DNA of 44,707 nt from Escherichia phage phiEco273, in sequence record PP786691.1; one strand, given 5' to 3'. This document shows positions 1-44,707 of this stretch, one piece after another. The notes under the pieces were generated by a model. It was not told where the DNA came from. It saw nothing but the letters and a program-made list of their open reading frames with translations, and ran no database searches. Made by a program: the position numbers and the translations under genes. Numbering within the stretch: the first letter of the stretch is position 1; every line of letters starts with the position of its first letter.

Positions 1-860
1 CCGTGGTGGAAAAATAGCGTGGTCTTGCCGTGCTGCACCATTTTGTAGACGTCCGGGGACGTATCCACATCGACGCGCGGCTCGTTCTCGTACAGCGTGT
101 TGAACATCTCAGCAAGCCAAATCATGCCCGACTCATCATGATTCCCCTGGACGATTAGCAGTTTGACTTTGTGGTGTTTTTGCAGCGCCAGTTCGACGAC
201 GTTGCGCACCATGCGAATCATGTAGCGGACCAACTTCTGGTATCGGGTGTCGGCGTCCAGTATGTGACCACTTGCCGGAGTGACAGCATCGAGGCTATCA
301 AAGTGGGCCATATCACCGAGGATATTAATTACGGCAGTGCCTGCGTCCGGGGCGCGTGCGAAGGCTTCGACAAACCAGCGGTAGAACAGGTCTTCGGCGA
401 TCGCCATATCCCAGTCTTCGCCAGTCTCCTCGCCCCATGCCAACATGCCCAGGTGGAAGTCTGACACGGTGTACAGGTTGAGCAAGTCGAGCGCCTGGAT
501 CGGTACTGGCGGGGCGTTTACTGGCGCTGCCGGTGTGATTTCGCTGTTCATACCCTCGACAACAGCGCGCATAGCTTCGAGTTGGCGCTCTTTGTCCTGC
601 TCAGTGATGACCCACGACATGACCTCTTCGCCATTGCCGCGTACCAGGGCCGATACGCGCTTAACACCGAAGCCATCGGCAACGCGCTTGCGGATTACAG
701 CGTCATTGCCGTGTCCAATGCCTTTTTTCGACAGGCGGGCTTTCCGCATGTAGACGTTTCGGAGGGATAAACCGTACTTCTTAGAAATCTCTTTCGATGT
801 AGCGCCGGATTGTAATTCAGCAATCAATTGCTCGTCTGTGATTTTAGTTTGCGGGTGCAT
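1..860 (-). CDS. Calcineurin-like metallophosphoesterase with N-terminal HTH-like region; N-terminal part (ORF runs off the window start and continues in frame at 44425..44707)
   Basis: ATG at 860-858 preceded by AGGAAG; hand translation gives DFHLG, GDMAHFD, GNHD, FHHG motifs; no stop before coordinate 1. Absent from the ORF track because it is open at the window edge. Confidence 0.7.
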   Translation of the reverse strand, partial: MHPQTKITDEQLIAELQSGATSKEISKKYGLSLRNVYMRKARLSKKGIGHGNDAVIRKRVADGFGVKRVSALVRGNGEEVMSWVITEQDKERQLEAMRAVVEGMNSEITPAAPVNAPPVPIQALDLLNLYTVSDFHLGMLAWGEETGEDWDMAIAEDLFYRWFVEAFARAPDAGTAVINILGDMAHFDSLDAVTPASGHILDADTRYQKLVRYMIRMVRNVVELALQKHHKVKLLIVQGNHDESGMIWLAEMFNTLYENEPRVDVDTSPDVYKMVQHGKTTLFFHH

Positions 861-956
861 AATTACTTCCTGATTATGGGGCCAGGGACAATATATCACG
901 GGACTTATCGAGGCGGGCAATAAAAAGCCCGGAATTAACCGGGCTTGATTGTTTAC

Positions 957-22277: not shown

Positions 22278-22508
22278 ATGAAAACTCTAATCAAATCCGC
22301 AATCATTGCCGCGTTTGTAGTAATGGCTGTTGGTTGCTCTTCTGGCCCGCGTCCGGATGGTTGGTGCGCCACGCAAGCAAGCGGCGTATGTGTGGCTAAG
22401 TGGAAAGGCGGTGTAGTTGTTGCGGCGGGTGAAGTCGATATTCGTTATGACGGAATTAAAGGGCATGGCGGATCAGTTCGTGATTATGGCTCTCGGGAGT
22501 GGAACTAA
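22278..22508 (+). CDS. small lipoprotein (candidate superinfection-exclusion lipoprotein)
   Basis: 76 aa; signal peptide with lipobox AVGCSS; AAGGAGA RBS; encoded next to receptor-binding genes on the opposite strand. Confidence 0.55.
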
Positions 22509-38181: not shown

Positions 38182-38329
38182 GCTATCCCCCTGGGATTGT
38201 GGCAAAGCGGGCCACCCGCTTGACTTCACGCCTTAATATTATCAGCGATAAAAATAATCGCAAAATTCGCTTGCAATCCGAGTATTGGTTGCATTATATT
38301 GGTTGCACACCAACAACGAGGACACAAAA

Positions 38330-39094
38330 ATGAGACTTACTAAAGACATTAAAAATCAGATTCTGGCTAACATCCTGCGCGACCACGAAATCGCAACCGA
38401 AGCCAAACAAATCATGATGGACTCGCGCGACCTGGCTTATGCCATTACGCTGGACTGTATGCCGGAAGGCATTCGCACGTTCGCCGAGCTACTCGCGCGC
38501 ATTGAAGCAATCGGCGATGACCCGTCGCAGATGTACGGCGTCTGCGTATACACCAACAAGGCGACGTATAGTTATAACACAGACCGCCCAAAAGGTATCG
38601 GCAGCGTTTACGACGCCACTTTCGAAATCAACGCAGGCGGAAACGTCCGTACCGTGTCATTGAGCGGAGACGGACACCGATTCCGAGTACATCGCGGATA
38701 CTGGGAGTATAAATACATGAATAAACTGTCTCCCGATCTCGGCGATATTGTGCCAGGGTATGAGGAAATTTTGTTAGCGTCAGTGTGCGAAGTCGACGAC
38801 GACGGGAAAGCGCTGCCGATATACATGCCACGCGGTCGTATAGACTACCCGGCGGACCATGATTTCTGTAAGCGCCTGGACCGTAACGACAAGGCCCGCC
38901 GTGAGTTGCGGGCTAAGTATGACGCGTTCAAGTTGACCGTTACCGGTGTGCTGGACCTGCACAATACTGACAAGAAGCTGATTAAGGCATGGCCTGAAGT
39001 TGAGCAATTCATCCCTTACCCGGACAAGCCAAAATCCACGGCGGTGGCGCTGGACGTGAAAACACTCAACGAGATTTGCGGCATTCCGCGCTAA
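38330..39094 (+). CDS. hypothetical protein (254 aa), opposite-strand moron within head module
   Basis: ATG 38330 with GAGGA RBS; preceded by TTGGTTGCAT/TATATT promoter-like element and followed by bidirectional terminator. Confidence 0.55.
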   Translation: MRLTKDIKNQILANILRDHEIATEAKQIMMDSRDLAYAITLDCMPEGIRTFAELLARIEAIGDDPSQMYGVCVYTNKATYSYNTDRPKGIGSVYDATFEINAGGNVRTVSLSGDGHRFRVHRGYWEYKYMNKLSPDLGDIVPGYEEILLASVCEVDDDGKALPIYMPRGRIDYPADHDFCKRLDRNDKARRELRAKYDAFKLTVTGVLDLHNTDKKLIKAWPEVEQFIPYPDKPKSTAVALDVKTLNEICGIPR

Positions 39095-39096
39095 CG

Positions 39097-39125
39097 AAAA
39101 AGGGGCCATTACGGCCCCTTAATCA
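39097..39125. terminator. bidirectional terminator (GGGGCC-ATTAC-GGCCCC flanked by A5 / T-rich)
   Basis: Direct reading between 39094 (+ stop) and 39109 (- stop). Confidence 0.55.
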
Positions 39126-39348
39126 TTTGCTGCAACTCCAACACCTGCGCCCTCAGCTTCGCCCCGCATTCCATATTTTTCACGTCAATCATCAAATCCT
39201 CGTCGGGGTCCGCGGACGGGCTATCGAACTTGCACGGCGGTCGCAGTGCCGACTCCGTTAGCGGCATCAACGGCGCGTTGCTTGATCCGCACGCGCTCAG
39301 CATCAAAACTACAATCAGGGCGGTTAGGGCGCGTAACATATTTAACAA
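39109..39348 (-). CDS. o-spanin (Rz1-like outer-membrane lipoprotein)
   Basis: 79 aa; signal peptide with lipobox LSAC; Pro-rich mature region; overlaps 3' end of i-spanin in another frame. Confidence 0.55.
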   Translation of the reverse strand: MLNMLRALTALIVVLMLSACGSSNAPLMPLTESALRPPCKFDSPSADPDEDLMIDVKNMECGAKLRAQVLELQQMIKGP

Positions 39349-39580
39349 CCTCTTTCGTGATAGTCCGGTATTCTACGTCGCGGGCTTGTTCTGCCTGCAC
39401 GGAGCGCTCAACAACTTTAGTTTGCTGCCGTTGGGCTTTTGCTCGTGCCTGTTTCTCAGCCTCTGCCACTACGCCAGCGCGATAGGAGTCCCCTAGCCAG
39501 AATCCTACCGCCAGACCGATAACCAGTCCGATCGCTGCATATTTAATCACGCCATAACCCCCGGTTTTTAAGCTGTGCAA
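39221..39580 (-). CDS. i-spanin (Rz-like)
   Basis: 119 aa; N-terminal TM helix then charged coiled coil (AEAEKQARAKAQRQQ). Confidence 0.55.
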   Translation of the reverse strand: MHSLKTGGYGVIKYAAIGLVIGLAVGFWLGDSYRAGVVAEAEKQARAKAQRQQTKVVERSVQAEQARDVEYRTITKEVVKYVTRPNRPDCSFDAERVRIKQRAVDAANGVGTATAVQVR

Positions 39581-40646
39581 TAGTCATCAGTTCGCCAGAA
39601 TCGGTAAACATCTTCGGCACTTTCACGCCGCGCATAATCTGGTCGGCGCGCTGCACCCCATATAATTCCTCCAGGATGTGGCGCGGCTGGCGCTGCACCC
39701 ATGAGAAGAAATCTGTCTGCGCGTCGACCTGCTCACTAAGCAATCTGCCTGCGTCGGCCTTCAGTGCCGGACGCTTACCACTGGGCCAATCTTCCATACC
39801 TTTGACTTTCCACGTCTCCGTTGAGCGGCAGCAATAATGTAGCTTGCCCGGACCAGCGCCATACTGTGATCCCGCCACCACTTTTCCGCCTCGCTTCCCT
39901 TTCGTATCGGGAGTAACATCAACCGGATAAAACAGGCGATCGCGTAGCTGGCACATGGGAGAAGTATGCGTGTCCAATGTAGATAACCATTGGCGACCTT
40001 CGAGAATATCGTCATTAGCTTTCACCATTAATTCGCGGGCGGTCGCCGCATAGTGGTTGACTGCGGACTTAACAACGCTTGATATTGCTTGCGCACTTCG
40101 ACCGCCTAGCGCGCGCCTCACATCCGCGATAATTTCCATCGTCGGCTTGCCCTGGATGAATCCGGCACGCACCTGATTGCCGATCTGCGTCCTGGTCCAC
40201 TCGGAAAGTGAATCGGGCCACTGCATCATGGTGTTACCCTGGAACGGGTTTTTCATTGCAGTCGCCGCGATCTGCGCGCCGGTCACAACACCCACCACCT
40301 CAACAGCCGGTACGGCGACCGCGGGCTGGATCGCTGCCGTTAATGTGTCGGCGAGATAATCAGCCTCGGTGTCGGCGAACTCCTGAAGGCTTTCCGCCAA
40401 CACCTTAAACTCGGTGCGCAGTTCTGTTTTAACGGTCTTGTCGAGTTGCGTTAACAGAGTGGTAAGTGCCTTGTTGTTCATGGACTTTTTGCCATCAAGT
40501 AACTCGGTCAGCTTACCCAGTAACGTGGGCCGGAACTTCTCCCACATAGCCAACACCCTCCGCGCCTGGTCATTGCTCAGGCGCTGGGTGAAGATGTGAC
40601 GGCGGATCATGCGATCCGCCATATATTGATTAATTGTTCTCGCCAT
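39543..40646 (-). CDS. head morphogenesis protein (minor head protein)
   Basis: 367 aa directly downstream of portal gene; synteny. Confidence 0.6.
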   Translation of the reverse strand: MARTINQYMADRMIRRHIFTQRLSNDQARRVLAMWEKFRPTLLGKLTELLDGKKSMNNKALTTLLTQLDKTVKTELRTEFKVLAESLQEFADTEADYLADTLTAAIQPAVAVPAVEVVGVVTGAQIAATAMKNPFQGNTMMQWPDSLSEWTRTQIGNQVRAGFIQGKPTMEIIADVRRALGGRSAQAISSVVKSAVNHYAATARELMVKANDDILEGRQWLSTLDTHTSPMCQLRDRLFYPVDVTPDTKGKRGGKVVAGSQYGAGPGKLHYCCRSTETWKVKGMEDWPSGKRPALKADAGRLLSEQVDAQTDFFSWVQRQPRHILEELYGVQRADQIMRGVKVPKMFTDSGELMTIAQLKNRGLWRD

Positions 40647-44098: not shown

Positions 44099-44168
44099 GA
44101 TATATGCCCTTTTGTTCATATGCGCCGACCATCGGCAACATAGGAGACGGCCCTGCCATCTAATGGGG

Positions 44169-44215: not shown

Positions 44216-44428
44216 CTAAACGGCGCGACCGTAGTATCGGGTTAACATGCTTTCTACTTCGCGTATTGCGCCTTCTGTGTAGCGTATTTGCGATAGTATC
44301 TCGATCCGTTCGCTGATAGACATGCCTACCGCCGCTGCCGTTCGTTCGAATCGGCGCAAGCCTTCGAGTTGTTTGCGTAATTCCTTCAGGCGTGTGGCCT
44401 GCGTGCTCATGAATACTTGTCTAATCAT
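44216..44428 (-). CDS. hypothetical protein (70 aa)
   Basis: ATG overlaps upstream stop (ATGA). Confidence 0.4.
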   Translation of the reverse strand: MIRQVFMSTQATRLKELRKQLEGLRRFERTAAAVGMSISERIEILSQIRYTEGAIREVESMLTRYYGRAV

Positions 44429-44707
44429 TTCAACATTTCCGGGCTAATGGTTAAGCGCGCTACTTCGCCGTAGTTGGCGCTATAGGTGATGACGTTTGCG
44501 CTGCGACCGGACATCCAACCACCACGACTGGCGTAGGCGTCTTTCGCTGCGAGCGTCCGGTGCTGTTCAACAATCATGTTGCGGGATTCTACAATCTTCT
44601 GGTGGTGCAAGTGGCCTACGTGCGCGTAGCTGTACTCACTGGCCCCGAAAGCCTGTCTGAATTTAGAAATCATGACGGTTTCGATAGCGTCAAAGCGCGC
44701 TTTATGC
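44425..44707 (-). CDS. Calcineurin-like metallophosphoesterase, C-terminal part (continuation of 1..860 across the window junction)
   Basis: Reading frame stays open to the last base of the window and is in phase with the ORF leaving coordinate 1 (...FFHHG|HKARFDAIETVMISKF...); contains GHLHH motif. Confidence 0.7.
   Translation of the reverse strand, partial: HKARFDAIETVMISKFRQAFGASEYSYAHVGHLHHQKIVESRNMIVEQHRTLAAKDAYASRGGWMSGRSANVITYSANYGEVARLTISPEMLK

Follow-up and report, generated by a model that had tools for sequence, protein, structure and literature searches.

The phages HK578, EK99P-1, JL1, SSL-2009a, EP23, and SO-1 have been placed in the Jersey overlapped i-spanin and o-spanin families (Kongari et al. 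2018, PMC6139136), in which a short HK578-type subfamily combines a two-helix i-spanin with an o-spanin carrying two constant cysteines. Spanins are the phage proteins that disrupt the outer membrane of the host. According to the accepted model (PMC6139136), spanin complexes accumulate in an inactive form within the peptidoglycan mesh until the endolysin removes this mesh. The spanin genes need not accompany the other lysis genes; e.g., T4 PseT.3 and PseT.2, whose o-spanin has a predicted C-terminal helix, are unlinked from the holin (t) and endolysin (e) genes (PMC6139136). Jerseyvirus SeF1 encodes its spanins as Gp9/Gp10 (phrog_2536/5672), its holins as Gp63/64 (phrog_2359/2508), and its endolysin as Gp65 (PMC9409062), and the gene list of a Dhillonvirus paper gives holins 31/32, endolysin 33, and spanin 40. 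The 2019 genome announcement of the E. coli siphophage Schulenberg (PMC6763661) states explicitly that the holin and endolysin genes are genetically separate from the spanin genes; with the exception of this sentence, the literature we found on spanin gene position consists of gene lists. For this phage group, the existence of the spanin pair and its location apart from holin and endolysin have already been described.

We analyzed the corresponding locus of Escherichia phage phiEco273 in a window of 44,707 nucleotides (sequence record PP786691.1). A 5.5-kb query around the spanin locus matched 159 phage records from Escherichia and Shigella phages, 150 of which showed one match spanning at least 80% of the query, nearly all with 90-95% identity. 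Shigella phage StarDew was the best match (94.8%), most of the matching records were Escherichia phages, and those bearing a taxonomy line were assigned to Dhillonvirus; the identity to EK99P-1 was 93% at the DNA level over the queried region. The last 1500 and the first 1500 bases of the window form one collinear block in phage Zumzum; the window therefore represents the entire genome of a Dhillonvirus (HK578-like coliphage) in circularly permuted form. The window ends cut through a gene encoding a 380-residue exonuclease (860..1 joined to 44707..44425, minus strand; DNA repair exonuclease in the Zumzum annotation), and for this reason the gene is missed in open reading frame (ORF) lists of the linear window.

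The gene for the Rz-like i-spanin is located on the minus strand (39221-39550) and encodes 109 residues with a match to phrog_2536, annotated as "Rz-like spanin" (9.5e-37 in a PHROG search). An initial annotation of this DNA had placed the pair at 39109-39580; both ORFs are found in this interval, but its upper limit is that of the maximal ORF, which is open from a TTG codon at 39580. The true start is likely the GTG at 39550: the PHROG alignment begins at this codon, annotated relatives point to it as well, and a GGGGG Shine-Dalgarno sequence is located 7 nt upstream of it. The first 19 residues of Rz (IKYAAIGLVIGLAVGFWLG) have a mean Kyte-Doolittle hydropathy of 1.9, above the usual threshold of 1.6 for a transmembrane segment, in line with the transmembrane segment noted in the initial annotation. 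A single-sequence AF2 model predicts a helix at residues 4-72, a linker at 73-83, and a second helix at 84-97, with the sole periplasmic cysteine, Cys80, in the predicted linker (mean pLDDT 64). Since this model and that of Rz1 are low-confidence single-sequence predictions (pLDDT 63-64), we used them for secondary structure only. Of the coiled coil suggested for Rz in the initial annotation, the model shows the helices, at low confidence. Rz is 42% identical to Jersey gp09 (tblastn, 5e-12), and its cysteine, along with the motif RTIT.EV.KYV..P.R..C.FD.ERV..K.RA, is kept down to homologs of 38% identity.

The gene for the Rz1-like o-spanin (39109-39339, minus strand) encodes 76 residues in the +1 frame relative to Rz and also matches PHROGs named "Rz-like spanin" (phrog_5672, 1.4e-25; phrog_1267, 7e-12). 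Translation most likely begins at an ATG (39339) that has AAAGAGG upstream. The N-terminus, MLRALTALIVVLMLSA followed by CG, combines a signal peptide with a lipobox that satisfies a PROSITE-style rule (MLRALTALIVVLMLSAC, LSA/C), with Cys17 as the lipobox cysteine. The residue at +2 is Gly and not Asp, so the protein carries no inner-membrane retention signal, which fits sorting to the outer membrane. The mature part includes an unstructured region with seven prolines, contains two cysteines (Cys36 and Cys58), and is predicted to have a helix at its C-terminus (helices 3-16 and 53-73 in the AF2 single-sequence model, pLDDT 63, i.e. low confidence), in agreement with the proline-rich lipoprotein with an LSAC lipobox first recognized here. 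Rz1 is 46% identical to Jersey gp10 (tblastn, 2e-16). The lipobox cysteine and both periplasmic cysteines are kept in every homolog compared; Rz Cys80 and Rz1 Cys36 and Cys58 are common to Dhillonvirus, Jersey, K1G, and the 38%-identical metagenomic homologs of lambdoid type.

Two other arrangements were considered and rejected. A unimolecular spanin of the T1 gp11 type, which unites an N-terminal lipobox and a C-terminal transmembrane domain in one protein, does not fit: the last segment of Rz1 is a hydrophilic helix (…LRAQVLELQQMIKGP), the protein lacks a C-terminal transmembrane domain, and it is Rz that carries the transmembrane domain. A second spanin or u-spanin beside the endolysin gene was also dismissed: the 55-residue ORF at 953-1120 has neither a transmembrane domain nor a lipobox, and the lipobox scan gave no candidate near the lysis genes. 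Besides Rz1, this six-frame scan of the genome retrieved one further lipoprotein candidate of 76 residues (22278-22508, plus strand), which is unlinked to the lysis genes and gave no NCBIfam match; as context, a Cor superinfection-exclusion gene is annotated beside the tail genes in Zumzum.

The two genes overlap by 119 nt (39221-39339, minus strand), as Rz1 starts 211 nt after the Rz start and extends 112 nt beyond the Rz stop. Such an architecture defines the "overlapped" spanin class. We determined the nucleotide diversity for each codon position across 17 Dhillonvirus loci. The part coding for Rz only gave, in the Rz frame, 0.075/0.038/0.213 for the first, second, and third positions, and the part coding for Rz1 only gave 0.091/0.027/0.216 in the Rz1 frame; within the overlap, the third-position diversity was about 0.098 in both frames, compared with 0.213-0.216 in the single-coding parts. 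This pattern is the signature expected of two real overlapping genes. It bears on the idea that one frame alone is a gene and the other a chance ORF, in favor of which one can cite several relatives annotated with one gene only or with a truncated Rz1. In each single-coding part, however, the diversity pattern is that of the resident frame, and both frames show constraint within the overlap. Each ORF also matches a separate PHROG family, and the codons for start and stop are kept, as is the lipobox, in 17/17 loci and in Jersey and K1G, so that we regard a chance ORF as extremely improbable.

Divergence is also much faster in the spanin genes than in the genes around them. Between Dhillonvirus loci, Rz and Rz1 are 73-95% identical, compared with 89-99% for the portal, head-morphogenesis, and scaffold proteins, and two allele classes are present in loci L006-L020, with an Rz of 109 or 102 residues and matching changes in Rz1. 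The existence of two such classes suggests local allele exchange.

A Pfam scan assigned neither protein to any family (no Rz or Rz1 model at E ≤ 0.1), and an NCBIfam scan of both assigned no family, the weak Rz1 matches corresponding to lipoprotein signal peptides well below the cut-off; the pair is therefore unrelated in sequence to lambda Rz/Rz1. In principle, the two ORFs could be envelope proteins with another role, e.g. superinfection exclusion or a membrane-associated accessory function in head assembly, to which the spanin label was carried from one database to another. Their location among head genes would suit such a role, as would the fact that the PHROG names are annotation only, with no Pfam or NCBIfam support. 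Against this reading, the architecture is specific, with a type II transmembrane helical protein, an overlapping outer-membrane lipoprotein in the +1 frame, and conserved periplasmic cysteines, and the genome contains no other spanin candidate. Moreover, full-length homologs of 38% identity (L021-L023) lie directly after holin-holin-endolysin in classical cassettes with Rz/Rz1, and the homolog in Vibrio phage pYD38-A follows an endolysin and a holin. We consider another role for the pair very unlikely.

Taken together, the PHROG matches, the transmembrane segment and lipobox, the conserved cysteines, the dual-coding signal, and the catalogued homologs uphold the initial description of an Rz-like i-spanin with an overlapping, out-of-frame Rz1-like lipoprotein. 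We estimate a probability of roughly 90% that the locus, judged from its sequence, encodes the two-component spanin of a Dhillonvirus and belongs to the described Jersey overlapped family.

A literature search found no experiments on the spanin of any Dhillonvirus or Jersey-family member, and the mechanism proposed here, which is established for spanins (PMC6139136), is transferred by homology. The N-terminal helix of Rz would insert into the inner membrane, with the helical domain reaching out into the periplasm, and Rz1 would receive its lipid anchor and be sorted to the outer membrane. The two proteins would then join by their C-terminal regions, probably with stabilization by intermolecular disulfides at the conserved cysteines, to give complexes that thread the peptidoglycan and are held in its mesh. 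After holin triggering and the destruction of the peptidoglycan by the endolysin, the freed complexes would fuse the inner and outer membranes and complete lysis. Because spanin activity is gated by peptidoglycan removal, the holin would set the timing of lysis wherever the spanin genes sit. Spanins need only be expressed before the holin fires; their genomic position is therefore largely free, and a separation from holin and endolysin has no necessary functional consequence.

In the window, the order on the minus strand is terS (ATG at 44119), terL, portal, head morphogenesis, Rz, Rz1, and a hairpin at 39120-39100. The gene directly upstream of Rz encodes an SPP1 gp7-like head-morphogenesis protein (39543-40646, minus strand; phrog_241, 2.8e-116), and its TAA stop overlaps the GTG start of Rz in GTGATTAA (39543-39550, minus strand). 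This junction is identical in 17/17 aligned Dhillonvirus loci, and Rz translation is probably coupled to the head-morphogenesis gene through GTGATTAA. The head-morphogenesis gene of Jersey and K1G is not contiguous with Rz, as a Hoc-like decoration gene and a gap intervene, so that this coupling would be specific to Dhillonvirus.

At the other end of the pair, a terminator scan identified an intrinsic-terminator hairpin, AAGGGGCC-GUAAU-GGCCCCUU followed by UUUC (39100-39120, minus strand), with a folding energy of -22.9 kcal/mol (z = -5.45) and the Rz1 stop codon in its loop. The hairpin is kept in all aligned loci, with compensatory stem variants (AAG...CTT to CGG...CC(C/T)). Beyond it, a gene for an Nmad5 protein (38285-39094; PF18757, 1.4e-56) is encoded on the plus strand between Rz1 and the scaffold gene; the genes for the scaffold and the major head protein then follow, again on the minus strand. 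The initial annotation had correctly positioned the pair between the head-morphogenesis and scaffold genes, but it had missed this intervening opposite-strand gene. Given the fusion of GTG and stop codon, the terminator at the Rz1 stop, and the opposite-strand island beyond, we predict that the spanin pair closes a packaging/portal/head-morphogenesis unit and does not lie in the middle of a single head operon.

The stretch that separates the Rz1 terminator from the scaffold gene (38185-39099) is a variable opposite-strand island. The Nmad5 gene was not detected at this slot in four of the loci (L008, L011, L016, and L019), and in loci without it the similarity ends just downstream of the Rz1 terminator. 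Phage TS6 likewise carries an opposite-strand gene at the slot beyond its spanins. Point mutations in Nmad5 have been reported to enable Dhillonvirus phages to evade the Tmn defence system (PMC11846954).

Upstream of the unit, a terminator-like hairpin (44208-44188, minus strand; -15.8 kcal/mol) is followed by a perfect extended -10 element, TGTTATAAT (44177-44169, minus strand), at a distance of 50 nt from the ATG of terS downstream. This region and the hairpin are conserved in the Zumzum alignment. TGTTATAAT is the sole perfect extended -10 genome-wide, with 0.76 matches expected by chance; because a single match is not statistically unusual, its candidacy as the promoter of the terS-to-Rz1 unit comes from position only. 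In a scan for sigma-70 promoters, the number of hits did not exceed that in shuffled sequences, and none was upstream of terS or of the holin gene.

The remaining lysis genes are on the minus strand in the 5' part of the window, where the initial annotation had recognized holin-like proteins and an endolysin at 1137-2147. PHROG matches bear this out, with a holin at 1857-2147 (phrog_2359, 5e-31), a second holin or antiholin candidate at 1615-1860 (phrog_2508, 4e-27), and an endolysin at 1137-1628 (phrog_7, 3e-36), followed on the same strand by the 55-residue ORF at 953-1120, which belongs to a PHROG of unknown function. Read along the minus strand, the order is a hairpin at 2182-2153, the holins, the endolysin, the 55-residue ORF, a hairpin at 946-925, the exonuclease gene, an ORF of 70 residues, and the hairpin at 44208-44188. 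The hairpin after the lysis cassette and the 55-residue ORF (925-946, minus strand) resembles a terminator (-16.4 kcal/mol, z = -4.4). From the endolysin stop (1137) to the Rz start (39550), the distance around the circle is 6.3 kb, covering seven genes and two terminator-like hairpins; measured between the start of the holin gene and the stop of Rz1, it is 7.7 kb. The collinearity with Zumzum validates the circle on which an earlier distance of 7.4 kb was based, but this value was approximate. A contiguous S-R-Rz/Rz1 cassette of the lambda type is thus absent from this genome.

The hairpin at 2182-2153 (minus strand), which is followed by U6, is very stable, with a folding energy of -24.1 kcal/mol (z = -7.1). 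It ends 5 nt before the holin ATG, the sole Shine-Dalgarno-like sequence (GGGA) is inside its 3' arm, and it is conserved in Zumzum but for one loop base. It could act as an attenuator, as a read-through terminator, or as a translational control element for the holin.

Separate transcription units for the spanins and for the holin and endolysin, as proposed in the initial annotation, are consistent with the two predicted terminators at 946-925 and 44208-44188 and with the promoter-like extended -10. Separate timing of the two sets of genes, deduced from these predicted terminators, is plausible; it is not required by the accepted spanin model (PMC6139136), and our literature search found no expression or timing data for Dhillonvirus. 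Alternatively, the same spanin pair could be co-expressed with the other lysis genes, the leftward block from the holins through Rz/Rz1 and onward forming a single late transcript in which the polymerase passes the internal hairpins as the Q-modified polymerase of lambda does. All the genes are co-directional, in an order running from the holin to Rz1, and the sigma-70 scan passed no promoter upstream of terS. In addition, the hairpin at 2182-2153 leaves a promoter no room, so that holin expression itself must depend on polymerase reading through a terminator-like structure. On the other hand, the holin region is separated from Rz by three stable hairpins with U-tracts, the perfect extended -10 directly follows the second of the two hairpins that separate endolysin from Rz, and no antiterminator gene was identified. 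A single late transcript is possible but, in our judgment, doubtful.

As for the origin of the split between spanins and the other lysis genes, a clue comes from Vibrio phage pYD38-A (Roufvirus), in which a homologous Rz-like spanin is also located downstream of the portal and head-morphogenesis genes. In this phage (L029, 227-3734), portal and head morphogenesis are followed by three opposite-strand genes and then by endolysin, holin, and spanin. The endolysin and holin are directly upstream of the spanin and the cassette is unsplit, hinting that the slot after head morphogenesis has a bearing on how the split layout arose. One could imagine that this slot is the ancestral home of the whole lysis cassette in this siphophage lineage, that Dhillonvirus and the Guernseyvirinae moved the holin and endolysin genes elsewhere while the spanins stayed in place, and that spanin dose tracks capsid assembly, a combination that we consider rather unlikely. 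If it were true, the spanins would be hard-wired to the packaging/portal operon, with a start codon fused to a stop codon, their own extended -10, and a terminator at the Rz1 stop. The layout would then be no historical accident, and would instead represent a conserved regulatory design in which the dose is tied to capsid assembly and not to holin expression.

The main value of this analysis is for the annotation of Dhillonvirus records. The pair is annotated as "Rz-like spanin" or "putative spanin" in some records of relatives; in many deposited Dhillonvirus records, Rz is uncalled, or one or both genes are named "hypothetical protein", and the StarDew Rz1 is annotated at 52 residues, with loss of the signal peptide. 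Because records mislabel the pair or truncate Rz1, the correct starts (GTG at 39550 and ATG at 39339) matter for curation. In all, roughly 670 phage records contain this spanin family. The locus is also a further example of spanin genes needing no linkage to holin and endolysin, which fits the passive wait of spanins for peptidoglycan removal.

Compared with known systems, the pair is closest to the Jersey short subfamily, with 80-99% amino acid identity of Rz and Rz1 to the Dhillonvirus members, and the differences are not substantial. It shares with this subfamily the +1 overlapped layout, a predicted two-helix i-spanin with one cysteine, and an o-spanin with two cysteines and a predicted C-terminal helix, and the helices predicted here agree with those that Kongari et al. 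(2018) describe for the short HK578-type subfamily. In Jersey (gp09/gp10) and K1G (gp06/gp07), the RefSeq records show a homologous pair after the head-morphogenesis and Hoc-like genes and before the scaffold and major-head genes, and TS6 has a homologous spanin pair in this slot as well; the genes overlap by 119 nt in phiEco273 and by 155 nt in Jersey. The position of the spanins is an inherited layout in common with the Guernseyvirinae (Jersey, K1G, and TS6), and no peculiarity of the phiEco273 genome. Jerseyvirus SeF1 has the same spanin and holin PHROGs with the same split, and Schulenberg, likened here from the text of its announcement, is Guernseyvirinae-like and belongs to a genus other than Dhillonvirus.

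Lambda Rz/Rz1 belong to the same class, i.e. a type II inner-membrane helical protein and an outer-membrane lipoprotein in the +1 frame, with prolines and periplasmic cysteines, whereas sequence similarity is undetectable (Pfam, E ≤ 0.1). The pair described here is overlapped and that of lambda is embedded, Rz has 109 residues compared with 153 in lambda, and Rz1 is longer than its lambda counterpart, with a predicted C-terminal helix; in addition, the genes are not adjacent to those of the holin and endolysin. The unlinked spanin genes of T4, in contrast, are "separated" and not overlapped, and belong to an unrelated sequence family in another genome context.
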